Assembly: GCA_964387775.1 (NCBI GenBank)
Contig: CAYLZO010000002.1
Coordinates: 8,003 to 72,002 of the forward strand
Origin: an uncultured Anaerolineaceae bacterium
Lineage (GTDB): Bacteria > Chloroflexota > Anaerolineae > JAAYZQ01
Direction: 5' to 3'
DNA: 64,000 nucleotides
In this document: one piece after another, positions 9,537 through 55,516 of the stretch
Position numbering within the stretch: position 1 is the stretch's first letter
Layout: the number at the start of each line of letters is the position of its first letter
The notes under the pieces: generated by a model
What the model saw: the letters and a program-made list of their open reading frames with translations, nothing else
Database searches by the model: none
Told to the model about the DNA's origin: nothing
Made by a program: the position numbers and the translations under genes

Positions 9537-9539
9537 GGG

Positions 9540-21451: not shown

Positions 21452-24400
21452 CTACCTCTCCGATATGGCGCTCTTGATCTCGTCAACGAGCCCTTCGATG
21501 GACAGCGGCTTGGTCACGTATTGATCGGCGCCCATGCCCAGGACACGGACGCGATCCCGCTCCTTGTCCACCGGGCTGGCGGTGATGACGATGATGGGGA
21601 TGAAAAGGGTGGCTTCGTCCGATTTCAGGCGGCGGATGACCTCGTACCCATCTATGCCCGGCATCCTCAGGTCGAGCAAGATGAGGTCGGGGTGGCTTTC
21701 GGCCACTTGGTCCAGCGCCTCCCGGCCGTTCTTGGCGGTCCGGATGTGGTAGCCGTGGAAGGACAGCGCCTCTTCGAGGAATCCTCGGATGTCGGGATCG
21801 TCGTCCACGACGAGGAGGTGGCGTGGTGCGTCGTCGTCGTGGGGACGCAGCGCTTGCTCGATGCTTTCTAGCAGCTTTTCCTCGGCGAAAGGCTTGACGA
21901 CGTAATCCACAGCCCCTAACGCATAGCCCTTGTCTTTCTCGGTGAGGACTGCCGAAGCAATCACCACCGGGATCGGGCTGGTCAAGGGATGGGCTTTGAG
22001 CTTTTCCAGCACCACAAAGCCGTCGATGTCGGGCAACATGATGTCCAGGGTGATGAGTTGGGGCTGCTCTTCCCGGGCCAGCCAGATGGCGTCCTCGCCG
22101 CTGCCGGCCAGCAGCACCTGGTAACCCTCGAATTCAAGCTGCCGGCGCAGGAGCAGGGCCAGGTCCCGATCGTCCTCCACGACGAGGATTTTCGGGCGGC
22201 GGCTAATGACCGTCGTCGCCTCGGGGCTGAGCAGGTCGGGGTCCACGTCGGGCGCGTCGGCCGTCGCCAGGGGCAGGGTGAAGCTAAAGGTCGAGCCTAC
22301 GTCCACCTCGCTTTCGACCCAAATCTGGCCGCCCAGCATGTCCACGAACATCTTGACGATGGACAGTCCCAGGCCGGTGCCCCCCGCCTCCTCGACGACC
22401 GGGTCGTCCACCCGGTAGAAGCGGTCAAAGATGCGGGCCGCGTCGTCCTCGGCAATGCCGATGCCGGTGTCGGCGACGTCGATCCGGACGAATCCGTCCA
22501 ATTCTGTAGCCGACACGGTGACCCGCCCGCCTTCGAGCGTGTACTGCCAGGCGTTGGCGATGAGGTTGTTCAGCACCTGCGTGACCCGGTCTTTATCGCC
22601 GCGTACTTCGGGCAGCCCCTTGGGAACGTGGCACTCCAACGTGATGTACTTTTCCCGATACTGCTCCTGGAAGGCGAGTTCGACCTGGGAGATAATCTCT
22701 CTCAGGTCCAGAGCCTCGATGTTCAGCCGGATGCGCCCGGTTTCGATGCGCGAGATGTCGAGGATGTCGTTCACCAGGGCCGTGAGGCGGTCGGCGTTGG
22801 CCTTGATAATCTGCAAAAAGTTCCGCTGGCTGTCGCTGAGCCCCCCGGCCATGCCCAGGAAGAGCAGGTCGGTGTAACCCTTGATGGACGTCATCGGCGT
22901 CCGCAGCTCGTGGGAGACGGTCGAGATGAATTCGTTCTTGAGCCGCTCGATCTCCACCTCGCGGCTGATATCGCGCAGTGCCGCTACCACGCCGGGCGCG
23001 CCGCCGATGGCGGTGATGAGCGGCGCGAGGTTGACGGCCAGGGCCCGCTTGCCCGCTTCGAGGCGGACGGTGCTGGTCTCAAAGAGCCGGTCGCGGCTGG
23101 TCGGATCTTCCAACCGGTGGCGCAGCTCGGAGTAGAGGCCCTGGGCCAGCTCGCGCTGGGCCGGCGTCTCGCCCAGGCCCAACATGTAGCGAAAGTGGTC
23201 GCCTTCCAGCGCCTTGGCCGAGATGCCCAACAGCTCCTCGGCGGCCGGGTTCACCAGGAGCACACGGCCGTTGTGGTCGATCACGAGCACGCCGTCGGCG
23301 ATTGATTCGAGAACCGCCTGGTTCTTGGCGGCTTCCTCCTGCTGCGATTGGAGCATCGAGCCAAGCTGGTCGGCCTGGTCGGTGATGAAGGCATAGAGGT
23401 CCGAGTTGTTGACCGCCATCGCGATCTGAGAGGCCGCGGCGGTGACCAGTTTGAGGTGCTCCTCGGTAAAGAAGCCGATCGACGGGTGGCCCAGCGTCAA
23501 CACGCCGAGGATGTCGCCACCGCCCAGCGACAGTGGGGCCGCCAGGGCCGAGTGGATCTCGAGTTCCCGGCCCGGGATCTTGAGCCAGCGCGACTCCTCG
23601 GCAATGTTCGGCACCAGGACCGGCTCTCGGTGTTCGACCGTCCAGCCGGCCAGGCCCACGCCCGCTTTCAGCGGCGTGCGCTCGCCCACGGCAATCTCGA
23701 TCACTTCGGGCGGCATCTCGTCCTTGTTCCAGTGGACGGCGACCTCGACGGGGTTCAACGTGGCCCGCAGCTCGAGAAAGCGCGACTCCTGGTCGAGCAG
23801 CATGATGGTGCCGTGGGTCACGCCCAGGGCATCGGCAAAGAGTTGCAGCGCCCGCTCCAGGACCCGCTCCAGCTCCAGGGTGGTGCCCAGCTCGCTGGTG
23901 ATGCGGTACAGGGTCTCGACCCGGTCGCGCTCCAGCGTCAACTCTTCGAGGGCCTGCTCCAGGTCGCGGGTGCGCGCCTCGACGCGGTCCTCCAGCTCGT
24001 TGCTAAAGTCCACGATCTGCCGATAGAGCTGGGCGTTGCGCACGGCTGCCGCCGTCCCCGCGGCCAGCGTAGAAAAGAGGGCCAGGTCCTGTTCATCGTA
24101 GACCCTGTCTCGCGTGTAGTCCTGGATGGCCATCACGCCCACGATCCGGTCGGCAGCGACCAGCGGCACGCCCATCCACGATCTAGCCCGCTCGCCGACC
24201 TGGCCGATGCCATACTTTTCGTGGAAGGCCACGACCTCGTCGAGGCTGCGGAGCAAGATCGGCTCCCGGGTGCGGAGGATGTAGCCGGTAAGTCCCGCCT
24301 TGACGCTGTACCGGGCGACGGGCTCTCGCTCGCCATGTTCCTGGGCAAAGGCCAGGGTCCACTCCTCCTGGCCTTCCTGGTAGGTTGCGATGTAAAAGTT

Positions 24401-27400
24401 GGTGGTGTCAAAAATGCGGTTGACCTGTTGGTGGATCGTTTCCAGCAGGTCCTTCAACTCCAGGCTGGAGCTGATGGTCTGGCCCATCTCGTTGAGCACC
24501 GAAAGCTCGTTGATGCGCCGCTGGCGTTCCTCAAAGAGGGAGACGTTCTGGAAGGCGATGGCCGCCTGCCCGGCGACGGTGGCCAGCAGATTCAGGTGGC
24601 CCTCGTCAAAGGCATTTTCCTGGTCAAAACTCTGCACGGCGATGGCGCCGATGGCCCGGTCTTCGGCGATCATGGGCACGCCCAACCAGGATTTGGCCGG
24701 GTCTCGCTCCAGGGTCAGATCGTGCTCGCGCAGGAATTCGGTGGTGCCGTGGGTCAGCAGGATCGGCTCGCCGGTGCTGATGAGGTAGCTGGTGAGCCCC
24801 TGGCCCAGCTCGAGCTGGACCTTGGGCTGGCGCTGGCTGTTTTCCACCAGATATTCGACGTCGATGGTCTGGGCCTCGGCATCGTAGAGCGCGATGTGAA
24901 AGTTCCGGGTGTCCAGGAGTTTGCCGACCTGGGTGTAGATCATCTCGGCCAGTTGCTCGGCGTCGAGCGCGCTGCTGATGGCCCGGCCGATCTCGTTGAT
25001 CGTGGCCAGCTCGGCGACGCGGCGCTGGGTCTCTTCAAAGAGGGAGGCGTTTTGGATGGCGACGGCCAACTGGTCGGCTGCGATCTCGAGGGAGGCGGCG
25101 TCTTCTTCTGTAAAGGCCCCGGCGTGATCCGCTTCGGCGTGTAGAACCCCCGCCACCCTCTCTGCAATGCGGATGGGGACCGAGAGGCTGGCCGGCGCAT
25201 CCCAGGCCCCGGTGCGATAGTATCGCTCGTCAGTGCGTGTATCGTTTACGAGCACGGTCTCGCCCTCGGCGGCCGCTGTGCCGATCAGGCCCTGGCCCGG
25301 CGCCTGCCGATAGTTGGACGGGATGACGTCCCAGAAGCTCTCGTTGGCCGCGGCTACGGCCAGCTCGCCGGACTTTTCGTCCACCAGCAGGACGGCCACG
25401 CGAAAGTAGCCCAGGTTTTGATGCAGGGCGTTGACCGTCGTCTCTAGCATCTCTTGCAGTTCGAGTTGGGCAGCGGCCCGGCGGCCGATGACGTTCAGCA
25501 GCGAAAGCTGCACGGCCGCCTGCTGCGTGCCGGCAAAGAGGCGGGCGCTTTCGAGGACCACTGCGGCCTGGTCGGCCAGGGTGCTGAGCAAGACCTCGTC
25601 CGATTGGGAGAAGGCGTGGGTCTCGGTGCTCCCCGCGGTCAGTACGCCAATGACCTGCCGGCCGGCCATCATCGGCACGCAGATCATCGAACCGATGGGG
25701 CTGGGACCCTCGACGAAGCGGGGTTCACGGCTGGCGTCGGGGACCAGCAGGGGGCTGCCCGTCGCCGCCACGTGGCCGACCAGCCCCTCGCCGAGGCCGA
25801 AGCGGAGGTCGGCCAGCTCGTCGGGGCTGGGACCCTGGCTGGCGACCGCCACAAAGAGTCCGTGTACCGGGTCGGGCTGAAAGACGGCGCTCAGGTCGCA
25901 TTGCAGCATCTCGCTCACGGCCCGAACCGCCGTGTTGCGTACGTGGTCGGGGTCCAGCACCTGGGTCAGCGAGCGCCCGACTTCGTTGATGCGGGCCAGG
26001 TTGTCGGCCCGGGTTTGGGCGTCGCTGTAGAGTTGGGTGTTCTCGGCAGCGATGGCGGCCTGGTTGGCAAAGATGGCCAGGGCTTCGAGGGTCTGGCGGG
26101 AGGGCCGCCGGTCGTCCCGGGGATCGTCCACCGAGATGATGCCCAGCAGCCGCCCGCCACTGCCCCGCAGCGGGGCGAGGAGCATGTCGTTGGCGTGCCA
26201 CTGCCCCTCCTGCCAGTCGCCCCGGCCGACCATCGGGGCGTGGGTGTGGAGTTTGGCCGCCCAATCCTCCCGTTTTTGAAAGGGGAAGAAGTAGCAGAGA
26301 CCCTGGCGGTACTCCTCGCGCAAGATTTTTTCGTAGCGCGCTACGGGCTGGCGGACCTTTTGCAGTTGCTCAAAGGCGCGAAGTGTCAGACCGGCGGCGG
26401 CCATGCGTCGCAGGGTGGGCCGGGTGCTCTGCCAGTTCTCGACTACGCTGATGAGCACCACGTTAAAGCCGACCGTCTCCTGGATGGCGTAGGCGATCTC
26501 TTCCAGCGCCTCTCCCAGCGGCACGTCGGCGCGGAGCTTCTGGCTGATCTCCAGCAGGCGGCCCATCTGCTCGGTGCGATGGCGCAGGCGGGTGTTGGCC
26601 CGGATCTGGTCCTCGTAGCGCAGGGCATTGCCGATGGCGATGGCCGCTTGCTCGGCCAGCGATTGGACAAAGGTCAGGTCGTCCTGGTCAAAGGCCTCGA
26701 CGTCGGTGTGGCGCAGGTTGATGAGGCCCACGACGACCTGTTCGTAGAAAATGGGCACGACGAGGGCCGATCGGGTATCCTGCCGCACGCAGACGCTGCA
26801 CGTCTCCCGGCGGGCATCGTCGACGATGCGGGCCTCGCCGCTGCGGCTGACCTGGAGGGTCAGGCTGTCGCCGCTGGCGTCGAGCAGCAGCGCTTCGATG
26901 TCGGCCTGCTCTTCGGGCGAGTAGCCCTGGCTGGTTCGCAGCGAGAGTTCCCCCGTCTCCCTGTCGGTGAGCATCAGGTTGCCGTGGGTGGCGCCCGTCG
27001 TCTGCACCGCCGACTCGAGGACGACCTGGAGGATGTGGTCGAGGGCCAGCGTGGCGTTGAGCTCCTCGATGGTGTGTTGCAGGGCGGTCAATTCCTCCAG
27101 GCGGGCGCGCAGACGCTCGTCAGTCTGTTCGTAGAGCCGGGCGTTCTCGATGGCCACGGCGGCCTGGTTGGCCAGGGCTTGGCCCAGGCGGACGTCGGCC
27201 TCGGAAAACTCGCGGACGTGGCGGCTCTCGTACAGCTCCAAGAGCCCGACGACGTTGTCGCGGGCGATGAGGGGCATCATCATCAGCGATTTTTGCTGCA
27301 TCTCTTTGAGCAGCGCCACCTCAGCCTCGTCGGCGTCTGGATCGTCAACCTGAATCACGACCGGCTGGCGGCGTTTCAGAGCTTCGGCTGTGGCGGGATA

Positions 27401-30370
27401 GTCGTCCAGGGGGTAGGCCACGCCGACGTCTGACGGTGGCAGGCCAGGGATGACGTCCTCGTGCACCAGGGTCGTGACCAGGCCTCGCTCCGGGTCCCAA
27501 TCGGAGATGCTGCACGTCGAGACGTTCAGGGCGCGGGCCATCTGCCGGGCCACGGTCTGGAGGACCTCGTCGAGGGCCAGGCTCGAAGAAATGGCCGCGC
27601 TCGTTTCGAACAGGATGCCCAGCTCGCGGAGCCGTTCTTGCTGGGCTTCAAAGAGGCGGGCGTTGTCGACCACGGTGCCGGCCTGCCAGGCGATGGCATT
27701 GGCGACCTGGAGTTCTTCCTGGCTAAATTCGCGCTTCTCCGTGCTCCACACGAGATAGACGCCGCCGATGACTTGGTCGCGGGCCACCATCGGGGCAAAG
27801 AGGGTGGTCTCGTTGGGAAAGGCTTCGAGGGTCGCCGGGTCCAGCCGCGGATCGTGGGTTGGGTCCAGGCTATAGACGGCCTGGTGGGTCTGCCACGCTT
27901 CTTCGATGAAGGGATGGCCCTCGATGGGGACCCGAAAATCGCGATAGAGTTCCAATTTGTCCTTGGGAATGTGGTAGCCGGCGACGGCCCGCAGGCGGGT
28001 GCCCGTTTCGTCGGGCAAATAGACGCCGGCCATGTCGGCGTCTAGGGCGCGGCACATCTGCCGGGCGACCTGGCGGACCGTCTCGGTCAGGTCGAGGGTC
28101 GAGCCGATGGCCTCGCTGACCCGGAGCAGGAGCTGGGTCTGCTCGAATTGCTGCTCGGTCTCTTGGTAGAGACGGGCGTTCTGGATAGCGACGGCCGCCT
28201 GGTCGGCGATGATCTGTAGGATCGCGAGGTCGTCGGCGTTGTACGCGTCCAACTCGTCGCTGGCAATTTCCAGCGTGCCCACCAGCTCGTCACCGGTCTT
28301 GAGGGGCAGGCCCAGATAGGAGCGGAGCGGCGTGGCTTCTGCCTCCATCTTGGGGCGCACGTCGTGGCGGACGGGGATGTCGGCGATCAAGAGGTGTTCC
28401 TGGTGGCGGGCGATCCAGCCGGTGTAGCCCTCGTCGAGGTGGTAGATGCCGCCGCTGGCCGCCGTGTAGCGCGGGTCGCCGGCGCTGGCGTGGGTGATCA
28501 TCACCTGGTCCGTCTCGTCCCAGAGGCAGATCTCGGCGATGTAATAGTCCACCAGGTCTTTGACGCGGGCCAGGATGAGGTTGAGGGTCCGCTCCAGGTC
28601 GAGGCTGGTGCGGATTTCGCGGCCGATCTCGCCGATGGTGCGGAGCATCCGAACGCGCTGCCGCTCCTCTTCAAAGATGCGGGCGTTCTCCATGGCGATG
28701 GCGGCCTGGTTGGCAAAGGTCTTGAGCGTGTCGAGCTCGACAGAGCTGAACGAGTGCGGCTCGGCGAAATAGACGGTCAGCGTGCCGAGGTTGGCCTCGC
28801 GGCCGCGCAAGGGAAGATCGGCCAGGGCACGGAATCCCTCGCGCCGGGCCAGAGGTAGAAAGTCGGCCAGTTCGGGCTCGTCCTCGATGTCGGACACGAC
28901 CAAGGGTTCCTTGGCCAGTGTGGCCCTGGCCCGGCTGTCGGGCGTGACCTCGACGTCCTGGGCTCCGGCGACGTATTCGTCGCTGAGGCCGTGGCTCACT
29001 CTCAGGCTGACCCGGTCCTCCTCCAGGACAAAGATGGCGGCCTTTTGGCAATTGGATACTTCGATGACCGAGTCGAGGATCGTGGTGAGCACTTGCTCGG
29101 AGTCGAGCACCGAGCTGACCGTGGCCGAGACCTCGTTCAGGGTGGCCAGGTTGGCGGCGCGGCGTTGCTCTTCGCGAAAGAGGCGGGCGTTCTCCAACGC
29201 AATGCCGACGTGGTCGGCCAGGTGCTCCATGAAGTGGAGATCGTCCGGTGTGAAGGCGGCCGGCCGGTCACTCTCCAGGTTGAGCACGCCGATGACCTGT
29301 TCGGTGCCCTCGCCTGTTCCGCGTCTCTTGATCGGCACCGCGACCTCGGAGCGGGTGGTCTCGCTGACGGCTTCATAGTCCGGATCGGTCCGCACGTCGT
29401 CGATGCGGGTCGGCTCGCCGCTGCGAACGACCCGGCCGACGATGCCCCGATCCACCGGCCACGCCCGGGTCCCGGTGACGGCTTTCTGGTCGGCGCCTGA
29501 CGGGCCGGAGAAACGGGCCTCCAGCCGCTCTCCGTCGTCGCTGAGCGTGCCGATCATGCCGCTGCTGGCGTTGCAGGCTTCGATGGCCCGTTTCAAAACC
29601 AGGTCAATGATCCGGTCGTAGTCGAGGTTGGTGCCCAGTTCGTGGTCGATCTCTTCGATGGTCGCCAGTTCCCGGTGGCGCCGGGTCAGGACTCGCTCGG
29701 TTTCCGCCAGTTGGGCTTCGGCCTGGGCCAGTTGGCGCCGGGTCTCGGCGTGGGCGCGGGCGTTTTCGAGGGCGACGGCGACCTGGGCCGCAAAGGTGGA
29801 GAGGAGCTCGAGGTCCTGGCTGCTGAACGGGGCGTCGTCGGCGCCGCTCCAGACTTCCAGGGCGCCAAGGGGATGGTCGGGGCCAAGGAGCGGCACGCAG
29901 AGCAGGGACCGAACCGGGAAGCCGGGGTCGGCGTCGGGGGCGTCGGCCCATTTTTCGTCCTGGGGCAGATCGTGGACGAGTAGGCCCCGTCCCGTTTTGA
30001 GGACGGTTCCGGCGATGCCCTCGCCGGCGACAGGCCGCCGGGCGAGGAATACGCCGGCGACGGGGCCCTCGGAGGCTCGAAATACCAACTGGCCGCTCTC
30101 GCCGTCCACCCAGGCCAGCGCGGCGGCTGTCGCCTCCAGGATCTCGACGGCCTGGGTCGCCGCCTGGCCGGCGACGACGTCGAATTCCAGGGAAGCCGAG
30201 ATCGCCTGCCCGGCCTCGTAGGCCTTTATCAGGCGCTGGAGGCGGTCGAACGCACCGTTCTCGCAGCCAGAGCCGTCGGACGGCATCGTTTGCTGGATTT
30301 CCTCCAGTGCTCGCGCCAGGCGGCTTTCCCTATCCGTTTTTAGGCTGGACATTTGTACACTCATGGCCAA
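21452..30370 (-). CDS. Giant cytoplasmic hybrid histidine kinase: 13xGAF - PAS - HisKA - HATPase - REC - REC (2972 aa)
   Basis: Single uninterrupted ORF. Thirteen GAF terminal-helix motifs were counted (see finding). Also PAS (LESIADGVLVIDHNGRVLLVNPAAEELLG), H-box (FISTVSHELRTPMTSIKGY) and G-box (GTGLGLSIVKMFVDMLGGQIWVES). Two receivers are present (KILVVEDDRDLALLL..LDIMLPDIDG and HLLVVDDDPDIRGFL..LDLRMPGIDG). The start is uncertain: TTG 30370 or ATG 30364. Confidence 0.85.
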   Translation of the reverse strand: MAMSVQMSSLKTDRESRLARALEEIQQTMPSDGSGCENGAFDRLQRLIKAYEAGQAISASLEFDVVAGQAATQAVEILEATAAALAWVDGESGQLVFRASEGPVAGVFLARRPVAGEGIAGTVLKTGRGLLVHDLPQDEKWADAPDADPGFPVRSLLCVPLLGPDHPLGALEVWSGADDAPFSSQDLELLSTFAAQVAVALENARAHAETRRQLAQAEAQLAETERVLTRRHRELATIEEIDHELGTNLDYDRIIDLVLKRAIEACNASSGMIGTLSDDGERLEARFSGPSGADQKAVTGTRAWPVDRGIVGRVVRSGEPTRIDDVRTDPDYEAVSETTRSEVAVPIKRRGTGEGTEQVIGVLNLESDRPAAFTPDDLHFMEHLADHVGIALENARLFREEQRRAANLATLNEVSATVSSVLDSEQVLTTILDSVIEVSNCQKAAIFVLEEDRVSLRVSHGLSDEYVAGAQDVEVTPDSRARATLAKEPLVVSDIEDEPELADFLPLARREGFRALADLPLRGREANLGTLTVYFAEPHSFSSVELDTLKTFANQAAIAMENARIFEEERQRVRMLRTIGEIGREIRTSLDLERTLNLILARVKDLVDYYIAEICLWDETDQVMITHASAGDPRYTAASGGIYHLDEGYTGWIARHQEHLLIADIPVRHDVRPKMEAEATPLRSYLGLPLKTGDELVGTLEIASDELDAYNADDLAILQIIADQAAVAIQNARLYQETEQQFEQTQLLLRVSEAIGSTLDLTETVRQVARQMCRALDADMAGVYLPDETGTRLRAVAGYHIPKDKLELYRDFRVPIEGHPFIEEAWQTHQAVYSLDPTHDPRLDPATLEAFPNETTLFAPMVARDQVIGGVYLVWSTEKREFSQEELQVANAIAWQAGTVVDNARLFEAQQERLRELGILFETSAAISSSLALDEVLQTVARQMARALNVSTCSISDWDPERGLVTTLVHEDVIPGLPPSDVGVAYPLDDYPATAEALKRRQPVVIQVDDPDADEAEVALLKEMQQKSLMMMPLIARDNVVGLLELYESRHVREFSEADVRLGQALANQAAVAIENARLYEQTDERLRARLEELTALQHTIEELNATLALDHILQVVLESAVQTTGATHGNLMLTDRETGELSLRTSQGYSPEEQADIEALLLDASGDSLTLQVSRSGEARIVDDARRETCSVCVRQDTRSALVVPIFYEQVVVGLINLRHTDVEAFDQDDLTFVQSLAEQAAIAIGNALRYEDQIRANTRLRHRTEQMGRLLEISQKLRADVPLGEALEEIAYAIQETVGFNVVLISVVENWQSTRPTLRRMAAAGLTLRAFEQLQKVRQPVARYEKILREEYRQGLCYFFPFQKREDWAAKLHTHAPMVGRGDWQEGQWHANDMLLAPLRGSGGRLLGIISVDDPRDDRRPSRQTLEALAIFANQAAIAAENTQLYSDAQTRADNLARINEVGRSLTQVLDPDHVRNTAVRAVSEMLQCDLSAVFQPDPVHGLFVAVASQGPSPDELADLRFGLGEGLVGHVAATGSPLLVPDASREPRFVEGPSPIGSMICVPMMAGRQVIGVLTAGSTETHAFSQSDEVLLSTLADQAAVVLESARLFAGTQQAAVQLSLLNVIGRRAAAQLELQEMLETTVNALHQNLGYFRVAVLLVDEKSGELAVAAANESFWDVIPSNYRQAPGQGLIGTAAAEGETVLVNDTRTDERYYRTGAWDAPASLSVPIRIAERVAGVLHAEADHAGAFTEEDAASLEIAADQLAVAIQNASLFEETQRRVAELATINEIGRAISSALDAEQLAEMIYTQVGKLLDTRNFHIALYDAEAQTIDVEYLVENSQRQPKVQLELGQGLTSYLISTGEPILLTHGTTEFLREHDLTLERDPAKSWLGVPMIAEDRAIGAIAVQSFDQENAFDEGHLNLLATVAGQAAIAFQNVSLFEERQRRINELSVLNEMGQTISSSLELKDLLETIHQQVNRIFDTTNFYIATYQEGQEEWTLAFAQEHGEREPVARYSVKAGLTGYILRTREPILLRSLDEVVAFHEKYGIGQVGERARSWMGVPLVAADRIVGVMAIQDYTRDRVYDEQDLALFSTLAAGTAAAVRNAQLYRQIVDFSNELEDRVEARTRDLEQALEELTLERDRVETLYRITSELGTTLELERVLERALQLFADALGVTHGTIMLLDQESRFLELRATLNPVEVAVHWNKDEMPPEVIEIAVGERTPLKAGVGLAGWTVEHREPVLVPNIAEESRWLKIPGRELEIHSALAAPLSLGGGDILGVLTLGHPSIGFFTEEHLKLVTAAASQIAMAVNNSDLYAFITDQADQLGSMLQSQQEEAAKNQAVLESIADGVLVIDHNGRVLLVNPAAEELLGISAKALEGDHFRYMLGLGETPAQRELAQGLYSELRHRLEDPTSRDRLFETSTVRLEAGKRALAVNLAPLITAIGGAPGVVAALRDISREVEIERLKNEFISTVSHELRTPMTSIKGYTDLLFLGMAGGLSDSQRNFLQIIKANADRLTALVNDILDISRIETGRIRLNIEALDLREIISQVELAFQEQYREKYITLECHVPKGLPEVRGDKDRVTQVLNNLIANAWQYTLEGGRVTVSATELDGFVRIDVADTGIGIAEDDAARIFDRFYRVDDPVVEEAGGTGLGLSIVKMFVDMLGGQIWVESEVDVGSTFSFTLPLATADAPDVDPDLLSPEATTVISRRPKILVVEDDRDLALLLRRQLEFEGYQVLLAGSGEDAIWLAREEQPQLITLDIMLPDIDGFVVLEKLKAHPLTSPIPVVIASAVLTEKDKGYALGAVDYVVKPFAEEKLLESIEQALRPHDDDAPRHLLVVDDDPDIRGFLEEALSFHGYHIRTAKNGREALDQVAESHPDLILLDLRMPGIDGYEVIRRLKSDEATLFIPIIVITASPVDKERDRVRVLGMGADQYVTKPLSIEGLVDEIKSAISER

Positions 30371-30442: not shown

Positions 30443-31339
30443 TTACAATCCCTGCTGTGCCCGCCGGCGGGCATCGGCGGCGACCTCGGTGATCTCGCGG
30501 ATGTCGGCAAAGGGCGCTGTGTCGTATCGGATGAGACCGACGGCCAGCGTCATGAGCGGTTTCTCTTCGACGTTTCCGTCGCTGTCCACCACCTCGATGT
30601 GGCCGCGCTCCCGGTCTCTGAAATTGTAAAAGGTCATCACTTCTTCGTTGAAACGCTGCACGAGGCGTGCTTTCATCTCGGACGCGTGCTGGGGCAGCGT
30701 GATGATCATAAAGTCGTCGCCGCCGATGTGCCCGATAAAGTCCCCGCCCGTGCCGATCTCGTCTACGACTTCGGTCAGGAGCATGGCCGTGAAGCGCAAC
30801 ACGTCGTCACCGGCGACGAAACCGTACACGTCGTTAAAATCTTCGATGTTTTTGATGCCGATGTAGAGCACGGCCCAGTCGTCCCGGCGGATGATCTCGC
30901 GTAACTGCTCCTCGACGAGTTTGCTGCTGGGCAGGCCGGTCACGGGGCTGGTGAGGCTGAGCCAGCCGGCCCGCTGGATCGAGTTCTGCACCCGCAGGAG
31001 CAGGAGCTGGAGGTCGAAGGGCTTGGTGACGTAATCGTCAGCTCCGAGCTCCAGCCCAGCGATCTGATCGCTCCGTTCGTCCTTTTGCGTCAAAAAGATG
31101 ATGGGGATGTGGCTGGTGCGCAGGTTGCCCCTCAGCCGGCGGCAGACTTCGTAGCCGTTGATGTCGGGCAACATGATGTCCAGGATTACCAGGTTGGGCA
31201 GTTTGCGCCGGCACATCTCCAGGCCCTCTTGGCCCCGGGGAGCGACCATCGTTTCGTAGCCTTGGGAATCGAAGTAGATGCGGAGCATGTTCGAGATGTC
31301 AAAGTCGTCTTCGACGATGAGTATCCGTCCTTTGCTCAT
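30443..31339 (-). CDS. Response regulator: REC + GGDEF-family domain with a GGDDF motif
   Basis: RILIVEDDFDISNML ... LVILDIMLPDINGYE (REC). The C-terminal cyclase-like domain has YGFVAGDDVLRF and IGHIGGDDFMII. No RxxD I-site is visible upstream of the motif. Confidence 0.8.
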   Translation of the reverse strand: MSKGRILIVEDDFDISNMLRIYFDSQGYETMVAPRGQEGLEMCRRKLPNLVILDIMLPDINGYEVCRRLRGNLRTSHIPIIFLTQKDERSDQIAGLELGADDYVTKPFDLQLLLLRVQNSIQRAGWLSLTSPVTGLPSSKLVEEQLREIIRRDDWAVLYIGIKNIEDFNDVYGFVAGDDVLRFTAMLLTEVVDEIGTGGDFIGHIGGDDFMIITLPQHASEMKARLVQRFNEEVMTFYNFRDRERGHIEVVDSDGNVEEKPLMTLAVGLIRYDTAPFADIREITEVAADARRRAQQGL

Positions 31340-31383: not shown

Positions 31384-32469
31384 TCACGACGACCTCGGTT
31401 CTACTTTTCGCGCCTTGGCCTTGACGGCTTCGATCTCCTGATCGGTTAGGACTCGCTCAAAGCTGCGAAATCCGGAAAGGCGGAAGCCGTGTGTGGTCGC
31501 GAGCTCGGCAATCTCGTCCACCTTTTCCAGCGAGATCTCTTTGCCGAGTGTATAACATTCGTACCGTTCCTCCAGGGCCAGGATCATCGTCTCTGCCATG
31601 CAGGCATAGGCCTTGCCCGGCGGGAAGCCAAAGTCAAATCCAAAGTTGGCCTGACCGGGCACGTCCATCACGCCTCCCTCGATGACGAGTACGTCGTCTC
31701 GCTCGTCGGCCACGCAGCGGGAGACGTTTCGGGGCCGGGCCACGTCACAGACGACGGCGCCCGGCTTTAGATGGGCCGGCTCGATGATCGGCTCGACGGC
31801 GCTGGTTACGGTGAGCACCACGTCGGCTTGCCGGACGTCGGCCAGCCGGGTGCTGGTGGTGGCCCGAGCGCCCAGCAGCTCGACCTGCCCCTTGACCCTC
31901 TCCAACCGGGCTGCGTCCCGGCCGACGAGCAGCAGGTGGGGCACCGTCCGGGCCAGAAGTTGGGCGCAAGCCTGGCCGATGGCGCCGTAGGCCCCGACCA
32001 CGGCGGCCAGGCAGCGGCCGGGTTCGAGGCCCATGCGCCGGGCGGCTTCCAGCGCCGCCTCGACCGCTACGGCAATGGTCAGGCTGTTGCCCGTCGTTAC
32101 CGGAATGGACAGTTTGCGCGAGACCGTCATGCCCGCGTCGCCGACGACCGACGTAAAGGCCCCCAGGCCGAGAATTCGCGCCCCCTGGCGCTCGGCGAGG
32201 TGCCCCGTCTGGACGATCTTGTTGTAGGCTGCCGAGACCGGGATCTCGAGCATCCGCTTAGGCGTGACCGGGCAGGCGACCAACCAGCCCTCGATCTCGG
32301 CACCGGTAGCTTTGGAGCGGATGCCGGTGACGTGACTCAGATACACCGGCGGGAAGTAGCGCGAAAAGTAGTCGATGACGTTCGCGGGCAACTTGCCCAG
32401 CAAGGGAAACTTGCGGGCTACGTCCTTTTGCGGCTCGATGGGATGGATCATGAAGGCAAAGTTGTTCAT
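31384..32469 (-). CDS. Acyl-ACP reductase-like NAD(P)-dependent oxidoreductase (cyanobacterial AAR / shikimate-DH-like family)
   Basis: 361 aa. GLGAFTSVVGD, VTTGNSLTIAV, Rossmann segment AAVVGAYGAIGQACAQLL and YACMAETMILALEE are collinear with recalled S. elongatus AAR motifs (GGFTSI, TTGNTHTAYV, VAVVGATGDIGSAV, FACFAEAMLLEFEG). Confidence 0.6.
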   Translation of the reverse strand: MNNFAFMIHPIEPQKDVARKFPLLGKLPANVIDYFSRYFPPVYLSHVTGIRSKATGAEIEGWLVACPVTPKRMLEIPVSAAYNKIVQTGHLAERQGARILGLGAFTSVVGDAGMTVSRKLSIPVTTGNSLTIAVAVEAALEAARRMGLEPGRCLAAVVGAYGAIGQACAQLLARTVPHLLLVGRDAARLERVKGQVELLGARATTSTRLADVRQADVVLTVTSAVEPIIEPAHLKPGAVVCDVARPRNVSRCVADERDDVLVIEGGVMDVPGQANFGFDFGFPPGKAYACMAETMILALEERYECYTLGKEISLEKVDEIAELATTHGFRLSGFRSFERVLTDQEIEAVKAKARKVEPRSS

Positions 32470-32557
32470 CGTCTAGCCCGCTTGGAGCAAAGGTGGCCTG
32501 CTCCCCGGCGATTCGGTGTATGTGCGTCCCTTCCCCTCGCTCAATCATGACTCCCTG

Positions 32558-33808
32558 CTACCGTGGATAGAGTCTGGGATGAAAATCGGCATCCGGCCAG
32601 TCCAGGTGATCGCTCTCTTCGTACGCGACGTTGTGCGAGATCACGGACCGGTCATCCTTCTTGGCCAAGATGACGTCCGACTCGATGATTCTGGCCGGAT
32701 AAATGGTCAGGTCGGCGCCAATGCGGCAATGGTGGCCGACGCAGCCGCCCAGCACCGTCGCCCCCACGTCCTCCAGGTGATCCCGGTGGATGGTGCGCAG
32801 GGGCTTGGGAATCAAGTTAAAATCGGTAAAGGTCGTGCCTGCGCCAATAAAAGAGTCGCGGCCCACGACGCAGAATTGCAGGCAGGCGTTCTGGGCCACC
32901 ATGGTGTCTTCCATGAGCGTGCTCATAAAGAGTGAGGATCGGAAGGGCAGATAGCAGCGGTCGCCGATCACGCTGATGAGCAGTTCATTGCCGTGCAGGA
33001 TGCTGACATTGTTGCCGATGATGCAATTCGAAATGGTCACGCCGGCCCCAATGTAGACGTTGTCGCCGATGATGGTTGGCCCCTGGATCACGGCGGTCGG
33101 GTCGATCTGGCTGTTGCGGCCGATCTCGACCATGTGGGAATTGCTCAGGAATTGCTTTCGCTCCAACAGCGAGCGCCAAAAGACCTTGAGTTGCATTCTG
33201 AACCTGCTGAGGCTGCGCTCCATGCGCGCGCCCTCGGCCAGGACGCCAAAGAGGCAGTTGGTGACATAAATGTGAACCCAGTTCTCGATAGAGAGGAAGG
33301 CGCGGGTGGGGATCTGAAAGACCAGGTCGCCCTTGGCCGTGGACATGTGGGTGGGCACCCGATAGGAGCCGAACTCGTAGGCGCCGCAGTCGACAACCAG
33401 GGGGCGGGTCATCTCCTCCAGCCCCCGGGGATAGTACCACATGTTGCCGACGTAGACGTCCCCTTCGCGGCGGATGCCGCTCTGGAGGGTGAGGGCGTGG
33501 CTGGTGATGACCTTGTCGTCCAGCGAAAAGGCGACGCGGCACGCTTTGCCCAGGGATCTGGCTTTGGAGAGGAAGGCCTCGATGAATGCCTCGTCGAAAA
33601 AGAGGTTGTCGCGATAGACGAGGGTCTCCTCGTATTCGCCGTTAGGGATCTGCTCAAAAAAGTCTACTTCGATCTCGGAGCCGGTGTAGGGGGCCAGTAC
33701 GTCTTTTTGGTGGAGCCAGAGGGGCTTGTTGAGTACTCTCAGATCGCGGGCAGGCTCGTTGAACGGAGGTATCTTTCGTTTGTCCCGAATGATGACCTTT
33801 CTCATCAC
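32558..33808 (-). CDS. Left-handed beta-helix (hexapeptide-repeat) transferase-like protein with an uncharacterised N-terminal domain
   Basis: 416 aa. Hexapeptide run IDPTAVIQGPTIIGDNVYIGAGVTISNCIIGNNVSILHGNELLISVIGDRCYL, and later GAGTTFTDFN ... GHHCRIGADLTIYPARIIESDV. Confidence 0.55.
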   Translation of the reverse strand: MMRKVIIRDKRKIPPFNEPARDLRVLNKPLWLHQKDVLAPYTGSEIEVDFFEQIPNGEYEETLVYRDNLFFDEAFIEAFLSKARSLGKACRVAFSLDDKVITSHALTLQSGIRREGDVYVGNMWYYPRGLEEMTRPLVVDCGAYEFGSYRVPTHMSTAKGDLVFQIPTRAFLSIENWVHIYVTNCLFGVLAEGARMERSLSRFRMQLKVFWRSLLERKQFLSNSHMVEIGRNSQIDPTAVIQGPTIIGDNVYIGAGVTISNCIIGNNVSILHGNELLISVIGDRCYLPFRSSLFMSTLMEDTMVAQNACLQFCVVGRDSFIGAGTTFTDFNLIPKPLRTIHRDHLEDVGATVLGGCVGHHCRIGADLTIYPARIIESDVILAKKDDRSVISHNVAYEESDHLDWPDADFHPRLYPR

Positions 33809-33813
33809 GGTGC

Positions 33814-34470
33814 TTAATCCAATGGCCGCTTGTCAATGACGTAGGTACACGTTGCATCCCCTTTGGCGATGCAGAGCGTCTCCTCCACCCGCATGTTCTT
33901 CCCGCCGGTGACCCAGTGCAGGCCCTCCAGCAGGAGGCCCAGGCCGCCGTGGCAAATCGGGACGTCCGATTCTCTCTGCCAGCACACGGGGCAGCGGTCG
34001 ATGTGATAGAGAAAGTGATCGACCTCTTCTTCAACCCGGACGATCTGGTCGCTCGTTTTGTTAAAGGTCTCGGCCATGGCGTTGAGGCCCACTTTCATCT
34101 TCATGCCCAGGGGCAGCAGACGAAAGGCCAGGTCGGCGACGCCCAGGACGGCACCAAAGTCCTTGAGGGCGTAGTAGAGTCCCGCTCGCCCGGCTCGAAC
34201 GGAAAGCCCCTTGCCTCCGCGCGGGCCGTACATGTCGTCCAGCGCCTGGTTCAGGGCCCCCATTTCCTCAAAACTCCAGCCGAGGTCCAGGTTGTTGGGC
34301 GGATAGTTGTTGATGAGGTGACGCAACTTGGCCAAATTGAGGACCGCGTTCACCCCGTTCTTGCCCATGACGTCTTCCAGGGCGAGGAGGTACATCCGCC
34401 CCATTTTGTTGGGCCAGTAATACTGCTCGGTGGATTCCGCTTTGATCTGTTCGTCGTTGGTCATCCTCAC
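33814..34470 (-). CDS. V4R (4-vinyl-reductase) small-molecule-binding domain protein
   Basis: 218 aa. C-terminal V4R signature: IDRCPVCW ... ICHGGLGLLLEGLHWVTGG ... VEETLCIAKGDATCTYVI. Confidence 0.7.
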   Translation of the reverse strand: MRMTNDEQIKAESTEQYYWPNKMGRMYLLALEDVMGKNGVNAVLNLAKLRHLINNYPPNNLDLGWSFEEMGALNQALDDMYGPRGGKGLSVRAGRAGLYYALKDFGAVLGVADLAFRLLPLGMKMKVGLNAMAETFNKTSDQIVRVEEEVDHFLYHIDRCPVCWQRESDVPICHGGLGLLLEGLHWVTGGKNMRVEETLCIAKGDATCTYVIDKRPLD

Positions 34471-34477
34471 TTGCCTT

Positions 34478-35260
34478 TCAATTAGCCAGGAAGCTCAGGA
34501 GAATTGGATAAAAGTCCTCCGGTTCATCCAGCATCGGGAAGTGGCGTGAACCCGCCATCAACTCCACGCGGGAACGCGCGACGCGACGGAACAATTCTGC
34601 CTGTCTGGGGTCGACGATCTTGTCGCCCTGCCCGTAGACGCCCATCGTTGGCATGCGCAAGGTACCCAGCCGGGGACGCAGGTCGGTGCGGTGGAGGGAG
34701 TGGATGCTCCATAGAAAGGATTCCAAGGTCATTTTGGACAGATCGCCCATCAACAAGTCGTACCAATCGCTCCAGTTGGCCGCGATCCAGGGCGCAAAAA
34801 GCTTGATGCCCAGGCGCAACAGCGCCGGCGAGTTCCAAACCAGGAACGCGATCCACGGCTGGCCTGCCAATTTGAGAAAGACGTTCAACGAGCGGCCGTC
34901 TATAGGCGAGCCGACGACGGCTACCTTTTCCACACGTTGCGGGCGATCGAGGGCCAGGTTCAGCGCGACGGTGCCCCCCATCGAGTGGCCAATGACCGGC
35001 GCACGCTGGATGCCCAGCCTTTCCATAAACTGATCCACCAACGCGACAAAATCCGAGACGTTGTAGCTTTCACGGCGCTTGTCCGATTCACCAAACCCCC
35101 AAAAGTCGAGGGCGTAGGCCCGGTATCGCGAGGACAGGGCCTCCATAGTGCCCAACCAACAGCCCCACGAGCCCAGCCATCCGTGAAGCAGCACGACCGG
35201 TTTGCCGCGTCCATAGGTTTCGTAATGGACGACGCCTTGGTTAGTAACGATGGAGCTCAA
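34478..35260 (-). CDS. Alpha/beta hydrolase (canonical Ser nucleophile), paralogue of 7700-8491
   Basis: 260 aa. Motifs are HGWLGSWGCW, GHSMGG, GQGDKIV and SRHFPMLDE. Alignable end to end with the 263-aa protein at 7700-8491. Confidence 0.85.
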   Translation of the reverse strand: MSSIVTNQGVVHYETYGRGKPVVLLHGWLGSWGCWLGTMEALSSRYRAYALDFWGFGESDKRRESYNVSDFVALVDQFMERLGIQRAPVIGHSMGGTVALNLALDRPQRVEKVAVVGSPIDGRSLNVFLKLAGQPWIAFLVWNSPALLRLGIKLFAPWIAANWSDWYDLLMGDLSKMTLESFLWSIHSLHRTDLRPRLGTLRMPTMGVYGQGDKIVDPRQAELFRRVARSRVELMAGSRHFPMLDEPEDFYPILLSFLAN

Positions 35261-35317: not shown

Positions 35318-35689
35318 TCAGATCAATCGGCTCAAATCCTCGGCGGCGCGGCGCATGTCCAAAAAGACCAAGCCCAGCTTGGCATCTTTGTGAGCCAGTA
35401 CGGTGAGTACGGCGTCTTCTCCGACTGAAGTCAGGATCACGTAGCCGTTGGCGCCCCGGATGTAGACCTGGTCCAGGATCCCCCGCCCCAATTCGCCCGC
35501 AATTCGCTCGCCCAAGCTGAGCATGGCCGCACTCATGGCCGAAACCCGGTCTTCTTCCACGTCCGTGGGGAGTGCGGAGGCGATGATGAGCCCGTCGACG
35601 CTCACCACGGCGGAGGCCTCAATATCGGGCGTGCTGATTTGTAGATCTTTGAGGCGAGCTACCATCTGTTCCGTGCGTGATCGTGTCAT
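35318..35689 (-). CDS. Roadblock/LC7 (MglB-like) domain protein
   Basis: 123 aa. Motifs IEASAVVSVDGLIIASALP ... MSAAMLSLGERIA ... GYVILTSVGEDAVLTVL are typical of Roadblock/LC7. Confidence 0.8.
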   Translation of the reverse strand: MTRSRTEQMVARLKDLQISTPDIEASAVVSVDGLIIASALPTDVEEDRVSAMSAAMLSLGERIAGELGRGILDQVYIRGANGYVILTSVGEDAVLTVLAHKDAKLGLVFLDMRRAAEDLSRLI

Positions 35690-35735: not shown

Positions 35736-36266
35736 CTATTCGGGGGTCTTGTCCAGTATGGTATAGAGCAGCTCCAATAGAACTCGTTTTACACTTTCTT
35801 TTTCCGTTGCTACACAAGGCAGCAATTTGATGTCCGGCCGGACCTTGAGGGCGATGCGCAGGTCTTCAGGGGGCCAGGCGTCCTCCATGTCCTGCTTGTT
35901 GGCGGCGACGACGTAGGGGGTATGGGCGTAATTGCGAAAGATGTCCAGGATGCGGCGCGCTTCGCGAAAGGTCTCAGGGCGGACACTGTCCACCAAAACG
36001 ACAAAGCCGAGCATGCCTTCGGAGAGGATCTCCCACATAAAATCGAAGCGTTTCTGGCCGGGCGTGCCAAATAGGTAGAGGACAAGGTCTTCGTCCACTG
36101 CGATGCGCCCAAAGTCCATGGCGACGGTGGTTTCCCGTTTGATCCGGGAGGTGGCGTCCGTGATCTTGCGCTCGGTGGATACGACGTCAATCTCGCTAAT
36201 GGTGCGAATGAATTCGGTCTTGCCAGCGCTAAAGGGGCCGGTAATAACCATCTTTACTGTTTGCAT
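35736..36266 (-). CDS. MglA/CvnD-like small GTPase (ATP/GTP-binding protein)
   Basis: 176 aa. G1 is GPFSAGKT, G3 is LFGTPGQ (lacks the canonical Asp, as in MglA-type GTPases), and G4 is ANKQD. Confidence 0.8.
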   Translation of the reverse strand: MQTVKMVITGPFSAGKTEFIRTISEIDVVSTERKITDATSRIKRETTVAMDFGRIAVDEDLVLYLFGTPGQKRFDFMWEILSEGMLGFVVLVDSVRPETFREARRILDIFRNYAHTPYVVAANKQDMEDAWPPEDLRIALKVRPDIKLLPCVATEKESVKRVLLELLYTILDKTPE

Positions 36267-36369: not shown

Positions 36370-37197
36370 CTAAAGCCGCTTGATCCGGTCGATCAGCTTG
36401 TGGATGACGGATCGTTTGACCGCCGGCGGCCGCGAGATGACCTTTTCCATCGCGGCGGTTGGGGCTCTGCGCGGTTTTGCGCCTTCCGGTTCTATGATCT
36501 CAACCAGGCCGGCCTGCAAGAGCCCATAGACGATCTTGCGGATCTGGAAATCGTCCATCCCGATGCGCTGGCCGATCCGCTTGATGGAGTTTTTGGGATT
36601 GATGTAGGAGATAACGCGCCACTCGTCTACGCTCAGGTTGATGTTACGCAACTGGGCCTGGGGGCGGTCGGTGAATTTGAGCGCCATCTCCAGATCGGGC
36701 AGTTCGTCCTGCAGCCGCTCCCATTCCTTGACCCGGCGGCTTCCTTCCAGGATGATGTTCTCCAGGTCTATGGAGACGGTGATGGCGTCGTTGGCCGGCA
36801 ATTGGTTGGGCTCAAAGTGGAACAAGCCCTCGGTCCACGTAAAGAGGCTGTAGACCACGTCCAGAAAGTCGCTGCGGACACTGTTCAGGATGTCCGACTG
36901 GCTGACGTGACCAGCGCTGATGAGGAGCATTCCCAGCTCCTTGTCGGTCTTGACGCCGGCTCGCTCCCGGATCACCCTGGCCTGCTCGCGGGTCAGCTTT
37001 CCGCCCCGGGCCAATACGCTGGCCAAGTGCGAGTCTCTGCCGCTTGCCGTGGCGTAGACCAACTTGCCCTCGCGAAAAAAGAGGGTTGTCACGCCCGGCT
37101 GGACCTGTGTCGTCAGGGCACCGGTCTTGCGTGCCAGGTGGATCAGATTCAAGAGCTGTGTCGTGCTAAAGTCTCTGAGGTTCCCTTTCAGCGCCAT
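36370..37197 (-). CDS. DUF4388 (PATAN-like) domain protein with a C-terminal winged-helix-like segment
   Basis: 275 aa. The N-terminus LKGNLRDFSTTQLLNLIHLARKTGALT is the typical DUF4388 opening. The C-terminus LSVDEWRVISYINPKNSIKRIGQRIGMDDFQIRKIVYGLLQAGLVEI looks like a wHTH (DUF742/CvnC-like). Confidence 0.7.
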   Translation of the reverse strand: MALKGNLRDFSTTQLLNLIHLARKTGALTTQVQPGVTTLFFREGKLVYATASGRDSHLASVLARGGKLTREQARVIRERAGVKTDKELGMLLISAGHVSQSDILNSVRSDFLDVVYSLFTWTEGLFHFEPNQLPANDAITVSIDLENIILEGSRRVKEWERLQDELPDLEMALKFTDRPQAQLRNINLSVDEWRVISYINPKNSIKRIGQRIGMDDFQIRKIVYGLLQAGLVEIIEPEGAKPRRAPTAAMEKVISRPPAVKRSVIHKLIDRIKRL

Positions 37198-37281: not shown

Positions 37282-37310
37282 ATTATACCTTGTCTCCAAG
37301 TATAAGTCAA
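37282..37310 (-). promoter_or_regulatory. Near-consensus sigma-70 promoter driving the minus-strand supercluster
   Basis: Minus strand reads TTGACT (37310-37305), a 17-nt spacer, then TATAAT (37287-37282). It lies about 85 nt upstream of ATG 37197. Confidence 0.6.
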
Positions 37311-42135: not shown

Positions 42136-44621
<2,486 letters not shown>

Positions 44622-44635
44622 CCGGAATAGGTCGG

Positions 44636-45691: not shown

Positions 45692-45697
45692 TCGTCC

Positions 45698-48572: not shown

Positions 48573-48591
48573 GCCGGGGAGGGTAGAAACA

Positions 48592-49488: not shown

Positions 49489-49494
49489 AGACCG

Positions 49495-50346: not shown

Positions 50347-50347
50347 C

Positions 50348-51412: not shown

Positions 51413-51437
51413 TCTCCCAGACGGCCTGTGCTACAAT
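51409..51437 (+). promoter_or_regulatory. Sigma-70-like promoter (extended -10) for the MNT/HEPN pair
   Basis: TTGATC (51409-51414), a 17-nt spacer, then TGcTACAAT (hexamer 51432-51437). It overlaps the stop codon of the upstream GT gene. Confidence 0.45.
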
Positions 51438-51454
51438 GTCGTGGGACTGGCAAA

Positions 51455-52284: not shown

Positions 52285-52290
52285 GGGTAG

Positions 52291-55486: not shown

Positions 55487-55516
55487 ACCGAGGCGATTGA
55501 CTGGCGGATCTCTTGA

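Follow-up and report, generated by a model that had tools for sequence, protein, structure and literature searches.

Small Ras-like GTPase modules of bacteria, such as MglA/MglB and the conservons, are known chiefly as polarity or developmental switches, and the inputs to these modules are poorly understood. Polarity modules that combine MglA, MglB and PATAN proteins were reportedly recognised by Makarova in 2006, and signalling operons that carry an enzyme also have precedents, as in the RsbQ-RsbP pair and in conservons that include a P450. The association of GTPase, Roadblock and PATAN proteins has already been described as well (Wuichet and Sogaard-Andersen 2014, PMC4316618). The locus analysed here lies in a 64,000-nucleotide stretch of contig CAYLZO010000002.1 from an uncultured Anaerolineaceae bacterium (hereafter the window), in which genes for a reductase, a hydrolase, a predicted hydrophobic-ligand-binding protein and a probable pseudoenzyme sit directly between those for a GTPase and a response regulator. 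The unit is a PATAN-GTPase-(Roadblock)-alpha/beta hydrolase (ABH)-V4R-left-handed beta-helix (LbH)-reductase-REC/GGDEF operon that appears to be vertically inherited in Anaerolineae, and its content suggests a link between a small hydrophobic metabolite and a GTPase signalling system.

This locus resembles the MglA/MglB/PATAN polarity modules in that it encodes a Thr-type PM3 GTPase (TxxGQ) alongside Roadblock and PATAN proteins, but its operon also accommodates four genes for enzymes or ligand-binding proteins as well as a REC-GGDEF-like gene, and the Roadblock gene is missing from most relatives; the passages of PMC4316618 that were consulted make no mention of such a cassette. With the RsbQ-RsbP system, which consists of an alpha/beta hydrolase and a PAS-PP2C protein, it shares the presence of a small-molecule enzyme in a signalling operon, and the window also contains PP2C, STAS and RsbW-like genes; however, the cassette hydrolase lacks specific similarity to RsbQ, and the composition here is V4R, a nucleotidyltransferase-like LbH (NT-LbH) protein and a reductase like the acyl-(acyl carrier protein) reductases (AAR). 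The Streptomyces conservons (CvnA-D, some with a P450) also place an enzyme inside a signalling operon, whereas this locus is without DUF742/CvnC or a CvnA-type kinase and its first gene encodes a PATAN protein; identity with a conservon was rejected, since no DUF742 is present. An initial annotation of the window, made from the sequence alone, knew of no characterised system of such composition, and none turned up in literature searches on DUF4388/Roadblock/GTPase, V4R/Roadblock/MglA or Anaerolineae/MglA/PATAN. What appears to be new, being absent from the papers searched and from PADLOC, is the composition of the cassette, its class-wide conservation and the recurrence of an LbH-reductase-sensor link described below; each protein superfamily and the GTPase-PATAN-Roadblock association were known.

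Conservation of the block was assessed by scanning one genome per GTDB species with an alignment of the LbH protein, which returned 221 relatives, and by reading synteny from the best 80 of these. All 80 are from Chloroflexota, namely Anaerolineae including genomes labelled Thermoflexales or Caldilineae, and neither gene order nor strand varies within the block in these species-level loci, down to an LbH identity of 56%. When presence is counted over the loci with enough flanking DNA to test a given gene, the gene for the PATAN protein (DUF4388, which we take to be the same domain) is found in 54 of 54 and the GTPase gene in 63 of 63, followed by those for ABH (67/71), the REC-GGDEF protein (59/64), the reductase, here called AARl (62/70), and V4R (59/71). 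The four cassette genes occur together in 45 of 63 loci, which disposes of the possibility, raised with the initial annotation, that they never co-occur elsewhere, and the cassette is always flanked by the PATAN and MglA-type GTPase genes on one side and by the gene for the REC-GGDEF-like regulator on the other. The four-gene block is thus widespread and embedded among signalling genes, as had been proposed; what needs revision is the notion of a four-gene cassette as the unit, for although all four genes co-occur, the true unit is a larger signalling operon of 7-8 genes. Since V4R is absent from some loci and AARl from 8 of 70, the core of this operon is PATAN-GTPase-ABH-LbH-REC/GGDEF, which V4R and AARl frequently accompany.

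The surroundings of the block are far less constant. Its outer upstream flank is conserved in just 13 of the 80 loci, which implies that the block itself is under selection, and the downstream array is conserved at the level of domains. Dozens of species-level genomes with divergent outer flanks share this order and strand, and the arrangement is therefore far beyond chance. No other protein of the block is as well conserved among the related loci as the GTPase (median identity 79%) and the LbH protein (62%). Only 11-12 of 68 related loci have a Roadblock gene; in the remainder the ABH gene follows that of the GTPase directly, and the gap between these two measures 11-100 nt in most loci.

The reductase encoded by the last cassette gene stands alone, without the fused class III aminotransferase of PigE. 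Its residues 4-353 match positions 2-357 of NF053554, the model of the PigE N-terminal domain (PigE-N; E 1.6e-61), with 208.7 bits against the full model, whose cut-off is 850, and it matches TIGR04058, the model of long-chain acyl-ACP reductase, at E 9.5e-31 and 107.3 bits, below the cut-off of 449.7. The solved structures that it matches are PigE (4ppm_A, E 1.5e-36) and AAR (6jzq, E 8e-24, residues 11-330). The Cys in YACMAETM (Cys290, codon 31600-31602), which the initial annotation had equated with the acyl-enzyme Cys of cyanobacterial AAR, does line up with the Cys of AAR 'FACFAE' and with that of PigE 'NGCMAET', and it is kept in at least 97% of 66 orthologue sequences. The acyl-enzyme cysteines are Cys294 in AAR and Cys296 in PigE, and the reduction of a thioester by PigE is experimentally supported (PMC8341465). 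In addition, AARl has the sequence GAYGAIG at residue 159, a GxxGxxG Rossmann motif whose glycines are conserved in about 66 orthologues. These alignments identify AARl as a predicted thioester reductase related to PigE-N and to cyanobacterial AAR.

Its relation to these two enzymes is not the same. Cyanobacterial AAR (6jzq) shares near-full-length homology, the acyl-enzyme Cys and the GxxGxxG motif with AARl, but AARl scores far below the family cut-off, has no partner of the aldehyde-deformylating oxygenase (ADO) type and is encoded in a signalling operon of Chloroflexota. PigE-N (4ppm; PMC8341465) is its best-scoring characterised relative, and the equivalent of Cys296 is conserved in AARl, but AARl lacks the aminotransferase fusion and has no pig or tam genes nearby. 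The description 'acyl-ACP-reductase-like' was therefore apt as to homology and the aligned Cys, whereas AARl is nearer to PigE-N than to the alkane-pathway reductases.

Database labels point to two other identities, a cyanobacterial-type fatty aldehyde/alkane pathway and a shikimate or quinate dehydrogenase: orthologues in JGI are often called 'fatty aldehyde-generating acyl-ACP reductase', NCBI calls some of them 'shikimate dehydrogenase', and Pfam reports a Shikimate_DH match. The former was rejected, as no ADO was found in the block, among the other annotated genes of the window or among the conserved neighbours of related loci, in agreement with the initial annotation that this is not an alkane operon; the TIGR04058 score of 107 against a cut-off of 450 also speaks against it. 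The latter was rejected because the Shikimate_DH match (38.6 bits) is confined to the NAD-binding domain and is outranked by the full-length PigE-N and AAR matches, and because Cys290 and the GxxGxxG motif are conserved. The best score to a shikimate or quinate dehydrogenase together with a non-conserved Cys, which had been named as grounds for doubting the assignment, was thus not found.

The LbH protein is 56-89% identical across Anaerolineae and contains hexapeptide repeats (PF00132, Hexapep, 63.8 bits); its first 220 residues had no match to a Pfam or NCBIfam family, and a hidden Markov model (HMM) profile of this N-domain found nothing among the PDB sequences. A first AlphaFold2 (AF2) model, built from a shallow alignment (68-89% identity), had a predicted local distance difference test (pLDDT) score of 51 and gave no significant Foldseek match. 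A second model from a deeper alignment had a pLDDT of 76.7, a predicted template modelling (pTM) score of 0.80 and an N-domain pLDDT above 90, and its Foldseek matches were CobY (2.4e-5), GMPP, GMPPA/B, ST0452, RmlA and GlmU (E 2e-5 to 1e-3), with a template modelling (TM) score of 0.51 to ST0452 over the whole length of the protein and a match to eIF2B just above E 0.001. These matches of the second model point to the architecture of GlmU, ST0452, GMPP and eIF2B gamma/epsilon, in which a predicted nucleotidyltransferase-fold N-domain is joined to an LbH.

Residues that would make such a protein an enzyme appear to be missing. The profile of the LbH region matches ST0452 at E 1.2e-15, and in this alignment, which the repeat register makes somewhat uncertain, the acetyltransferase His308 of ST0452 falls on Gln305 (Gln/Glu across the family) and its Asn331 on the invariant Asp328. 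The canonical pyrophosphorylase loop after strand 1 is the Gly-rich G-x-G-(T/S)-R. Here the loop after strand 1 reads RDKRKIPPFN, with no glycine, and when the family is aligned, P14 and F15 are the sole conserved positions among the first 30 columns, which include no conserved Gly. The absence of both the Gly loop and the acetyltransferase His leaves the label of an acyl- or acetyl-transferase unjustified, such that of the earlier 'LbH transferase-like' the hexapeptide repeats stand and the transferase is doubtful; the protein may be a pseudoenzyme. With the bifunctional ST0452/GlmU and with GMPPA and eIF2B gamma/epsilon, which are non-catalytic paralogues with a regulatory role, it shares the two-domain architecture at the level of the fold and a homologous LbH region, and it differs from ST0452/GlmU by the missing Gly-rich loop, by the Gln in place of the His and by an N-domain without a match to Pfam or NCBIfam. 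The NT-LbH family is broad, with 869 representatives at E <= 0.001 and a common two-domain layout. A search for fusions among its longer members found one, to a GT2 HpnB/CruG-like lipid glycosyltransferase (P0348), and none to V4R, ABH or a reductase.

The V4R protein of the window scores 28.9 bits against PF02830, for which the gathering score is 31, and the same model matches 16 of 16 sampled orthologues at E <= 0.01 (best E 8.7e-14). A single-sequence phmmer search of the solved structures had no match, and the family profile found weak PDB matches to the MopR and PoxR sensor domains and to the V4R protein MJ1460; there is also weak full-length similarity to BchJ. The invariant residues C173, E197, C200 and C208 line up with C155, E178, C181 and C189 of MopR, which are presumably its zinc ligands. 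Matches across the family and this Cys/Glu/Cys/Cys set link the protein to BchJ, to the MopR/PoxR/DmpR sensors and to TRAPPC3/Bet3, and it differs in having no fused AAA+ activator, no photosynthesis cluster around it and an extra CxxC pair. TRAPPC3 is part of TRAPP, a Rab guanine nucleotide exchange factor (GEF). Cavities of this kind hold phenols in PoxR or palmitate in TRAPPC3 (PMC10933270), and the binding of palmitate by TRAPPC3, a V4R homologue, has been reported separately (PMC2253512). The cassette V4R is accordingly a protein for which a zinc site and ligand binding are predicted. In its additional CxxC pair C163 is invariant, and C160 is kept by 90% or more of the sequences. The alignment with MopR shows nothing equivalent, and the pair may bind a second metal or act as a redox site.

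The hydrolase matches PF00561 (Abhydrolase_1) with 115 bits and has the triad Ser93 (GHSMG), Asp213 and His240; the GHSMG elbow is retained in 69 of 72 orthologues, and ABH is predicted to be catalytically competent. Its NCBIfam matches are generic, and its best 60 PDB matches are by name esterases, peroxidases, epoxide hydrolases and C-C hydrolases, with no RsbQ, KAI2 or D14 receptor among them. The idea that this hydrolase serves as a receptor in the manner of RsbQ or KAI2/D14 thus gained nothing from special similarity, and an RsbQ-like role was rejected on this ground and because the triad is intact. A paralogue elsewhere in the window, ABH2, is 38% identical to ABH and has no nucleophile; in its orthologues the nucleophile position is occupied by Ala (16), Gly (7), Thr (4) or Ser (2). 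ABH2 appears to have the alpha/beta-hydrolase fold without catalytic function and may be a ligand receptor. Many loci have ABH2 and a REC gene again at a distance of 6-8 kb downstream from the block, which fits a scheme with a ligand receptor and a ligand-processing enzyme. For all four cassette proteins the family assignments made at the outset stand.

The proteins on either side of the cassette belong to known signalling families. The GTPase has the P-loop GPFSAGKT, GTPGQ at position 67 and NKQD, and the replacement of the Asp of DxxGQ by Thr is a hallmark of MglA (PMC3000849). DUF4388 and PATAN occur together in a preprint (bioRxiv 2021.06.11.447907). In the REC-GGDEF protein the PF00990 match spans positions 5-107 of 161, the first two thirds alone, and the protein is probably not a canonical diguanylate cyclase. 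Its motifs read GGDDF for GG[D/E]EF and TGLPSS for TGLxNR.

A link between an LbH protein, a reductase and a sensor is also found outside the conserved block. Distant LbH relatives were sought in metagenomes with 8 closer sequences, as an alignment of 19 sequences was too diverse for search patterns. One distant clade (loci L082, L084 and L087-L125) is 29% identical to the LbH protein of the window, and its genes form a conserved triad in the order short-chain dehydrogenase/reductase (SDR)-type thioester-reductase-like gene, LbH gene, seven-transmembrane (7TM)/GAF histidine kinase gene. The SDR-type reductase gene lies immediately upstream of the LbH gene in 19 of 27 testable contigs and the 7TM/GAF kinase gene immediately downstream in 22 of 29, and both are present in 16 of 24. 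The best named matches of this reductase are to thioester-reductase and fatty-acyl-CoA-reductase models (TIGR01746, PRK07201), all below cut-offs, and its fold is unrelated to that of AARl. No GTPase gene is nearby in this clade. At other single distant loci the LbH gene adjoins one for a class III aminotransferase (L086) or for a PlsC-type acyltransferase (L085). The independent recurrence of the LbH-reductase-sensor link supports a functional connection; indeed, the strongest case for cooperation between LbH and reductase, and for their tie to signalling, comes from two unrelated reductase folds occurring beside one LbH family and a sensor.

Taken with the predicted activities, these data lead us to favour, tentatively and as a possibility somewhat short of even, a scheme in which the cassette makes and binds a thioester-derived ligand, the state of which is linked with the GTPase, with the REC-GGDEF-like regulator and with the kinases downstream. 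The initial annotation had likewise suggested that the cassette may make, modify or perceive a lipid-derived signal (fatty aldehyde or acyl) that would feed the downstream kinases. In the scheme favoured here, Cys290 of AARl would accept an acyl group donated by acyl-ACP, by acyl-CoA or by a thioester bound to a carrier or a protein, and AARl would reduce it with NAD(P)H to an aldehyde, and ABH, through Ser93/Asp213/His240, would make or destroy a related ester or thioester. The zinc-stabilised V4R protein would bind the hydrophobic substrate or product, as PoxR does phenols and TRAPPC3 palmitate, and the highly conserved NT-LbH would, on the model of GMPPA and eIF2B gamma/epsilon, be a subunit that binds ligand or regulates, and the partner of the reductase. 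Jointly the cassette proteins would determine or signal how much of a small acyl-derived metabolite is present, and this amount would be coupled to the GTPase switch, to the REC-GGDEF-like regulator and to the downstream array of GAF kinases, stressosome and partner-switching proteins. What the data show is the gene content, the retained catalytic and ligand-site residues, the folds assigned, the synteny and the repeated LbH-reductase-sensor arrangement; from these we infer the substrate class, the direction of information flow and the physical interactions.

Several observations weigh against this scheme. V4R is absent from the block in Thermoflexus loci and in most Caldilineaceae-labelled loci, and together with the eight loci that lack AARl this means that neither protein is essential to the core. 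The block contains no acyl carrier protein, acyl-activating enzyme or aminotransferase; the LbH protein is without the catalytic His of its closest solved relative, which makes a transferase step uncertain; and the similarity of ABH to named families and structures is generic. Moreover, conserved synteny cannot separate an input (sensing) from an output (regulated pathway) role.

An output role, the main alternative, would make the cassette a small pathway that synthesises or modifies, for example, an envelope lipid, a glycolipid or a secondary metabolite; the neighbouring signalling proteins would control its expression or activity and would not sense its product. The intact active sites of AARl and ABH are in keeping with it, as are the lipid glycosyltransferase fused to the distant LbH member P0348, the PlsC-type acyltransferase beside that of L085, the Wzy_C-like membrane protein encoded in the same array and the polysaccharide cluster nearby. 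We nevertheless consider such a pathway rather unlikely, as the block has too few enzymes, with neither a carrier nor an activating enzyme present, canonical catalytic residues are missing from the LbH protein, the genes have stayed inside a signalling operon between GTPase and response regulator across class-level divergence, and the distant clade too pairs LbH with a sensor kinase. Even less can be said for unrelated housekeeping genes that lie next to signalling genes by shared ancestry and have no functional link: all related loci do come from one class, Anaerolineae sensu lato, and inheritance contributes to their order, but flanks diverged quickly (upstream kept in 13/80, downstream variable) while block order, strand and short gaps were retained down to 56% identity, and the LbH-reductase-kinase adjacency is seen independently in the distant clade, so that coincidence of this kind is very improbable. 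The alkane-pathway and shikimate/quinate dehydrogenase identities discussed above for AARl are scarcely credible.

A different proposal places the action at the level of a protein complex, with V4R (of TRAPPC3/Bet3-like fold) and NT-LbH (as a pseudoenzyme like eIF2B gamma/epsilon or GMPPA) as a GEF, a GTPase-activating protein (GAP) or a scaffold of the MglA-type GTPase and with ABH and AARl acting on a protein- or carrier-bound acyl-thioester that switches the complex. The GEF activity of eIF2B does not reside in its NT or LbH domains, some lineages have the GTPase and LbH but no V4R, and the distant LbH clade has no GTPase nearby, and these points make the proposal quite improbable in our view. 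It would nonetheless account for the LbH protein and the GTPase being the most conserved in the block (medians of 62% and 79%), for the loss of both catalytic signatures of the NT-LbH architecture, for the presence of eIF2B and GMPPA among the fold matches of LbH and for the homology of V4R to palmitate-binding TRAPPC3 (PMC2253512; PMC10933270); in addition, most loci are without the Roadblock GAP, so another regulator would be needed. Very unlikely is a GTPase switch gated by lipid state, a regulatory machine made of folds known from eukaryotic GTPase regulators, namely V4R (TRAPPC3-like), NT-LbH (an eIF2B gamma/epsilon- or GMPPA-like pseudoenzyme) and, in some lineages, Roadblock. It would respond to an acyl-thioester mark or ligand that ABH and AARl remove or convert, and its outputs would be cyclic-di-GMP-like, two-component and partner-switching. 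The thioester-derived ligand coupled to GTPase and kinases thus remains the reading that we favour, at the tentative strength given above.

All features are listed in Table 1. The four minus-strand open reading frames (ORFs) of the cassette were found where the initial annotation had placed them, with Roadblock and small GTPase genes upstream and the REC-GGDEF-like gene downstream, and the intergenic gaps of 7, 5 and 88 nt were confirmed when the longest ORFs are taken. The database copy of the LbH protein begins one codon later (415 aa), which gives a V4R-LbH gap of 8 nt, and the probable start is the ATG at 33805. The window is high-GC DNA; GC content at third codon positions (GC3) is 0.75-0.82 in all four genes, high, as in real genes of this genome, and the closest named relatives of the window proteins are from Anaerolineae metagenome-assembled genomes. 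Looking up the exact sequences gave no name for the LbH protein and the reductase and a generic COG name in the cluster of the hydrolase, and the V4R ORF as called was absent from that collection. The promoter candidate before the PATAN gene lies in a 277-nt divergent intergenic region and agrees with 11 of 12 consensus positions, by consensus match alone; terminator-like matches were no more frequent than chance. A PADLOC scan of the block proteins gave no defence-system match except a weak one to the REC domain. A mobile island was rejected, as the block seems to be vertically inherited inside one class.

The block opens a single co-directional signalling array, which also includes the 2972-aa kinase, further GAF kinases, a stressosome-like RsbR/S/T/X set, an RsbV/RsbW/GAF-PP2C set and ABH2. 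The GAF array of the 2972-aa kinase is unusually long, and GAF-rich relatives lie downstream of the block in 25-48 related loci at a domain-level identity of 24-37%. The stressosome and partner-switching set at the far end of the array is complete: three RsbR-like STAS proteins, RsbS-, RsbT- and RsbX-like proteins and a REC protein are followed by RsbV-like and RsbW-like proteins and a 4xGAF-PP2C phosphatase. A tRNA-Sec gene lies within the array. The polysaccharide-type cluster on the other strand has a lower GC content, encodes an NDP-sugar epimerase, a Wzx-like flippase, several sulfotransferases and GT1/GT2/GT4 glycosyltransferases, and contains a toxin-antitoxin pair.

Table 1. Features of the window discussed in the text, with positions counted from its first nucleotide.
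Feature	Position	Strand	Remarks
Alpha/beta hydrolase (ABH)	34478-35260	(-)	260 aa; PF00561
V4R protein, stand-alone, BchJ/MopR-like, predicted ligand-binding	33814-34470	(-)	218 aa; PF02830
LbH protein: nucleotidyltransferase-like N-domain and left-handed beta-helix (GlmU/ST0452/GMPP/eIF2B-like)	32558-33808	(-)	416 aa; Hexapep
AARl, predicted thioester reductase of AAR/PigE-N type	31384-32469	(-)	361 aa; NF053554, TIGR04058
PATAN (DUF4388) protein, first gene of conserved block	36370-37197	(-)	PF14332, E 1.4e-28
MglA-type small Ras-like GTPase	35736-36266	(-)	Pfam ATP_bind_1, Ras, Arf matches
Roadblock/LC7 (MglB-like) protein, lineage-specific	35318-35689	(-)	PF03259, E 3.5e-20
REC and degenerate GGDEF-like response regulator, last gene of conserved core	30443-31339	(-)	PF00072, E 1e-27; PF00990, E 2.9e-11
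Sigma-70-like promoter candidate before PATAN gene	37282-37310	(-)	TTGACT-17-TATAAT
Co-directional signalling array	1225-37197	(-)	
2972-aa sensor kinase, start of variable downstream kinase array	21452-30370	(-)	~12-13 GAF, PAS, HisKA/HATPase, two REC
Stressosome and partner-switching set	1225-13996	(-)	
REC gene	8527-8919	(-)	adjoins ABH2
ABH2, nucleophile-less paralogue of ABH	7700-8491	(-)	GHTLG in place of Ser nucleophile
tRNA-Sec gene	7530-7626	(-)	Rfam 69.6 bits; ARAGORN anticodon TCA; between ABH2 and Wzy_C-like membrane protein gene
Polysaccharide-type cluster	42142-57881	(+)	
Nucleotidyltransferase/HepT toxin-antitoxin pair	51428-52284		in polysaccharide-type cluster

The operon described here is conserved across a class of abundant, mostly uncultured filamentous bacteria. 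If its cassette makes or reads a metabolite, it would provide a concrete, testable input (or output) for the GTPase switch. If true, this would also be the first functional context for the NT-LbH family, for non-cyanobacterial AAR/PigE-like reductases and for stand-alone bacterial V4R proteins. The recurrence of the LbH-reductase-sensor link with a reductase of unrelated fold suggests a general and so far undescribed design.

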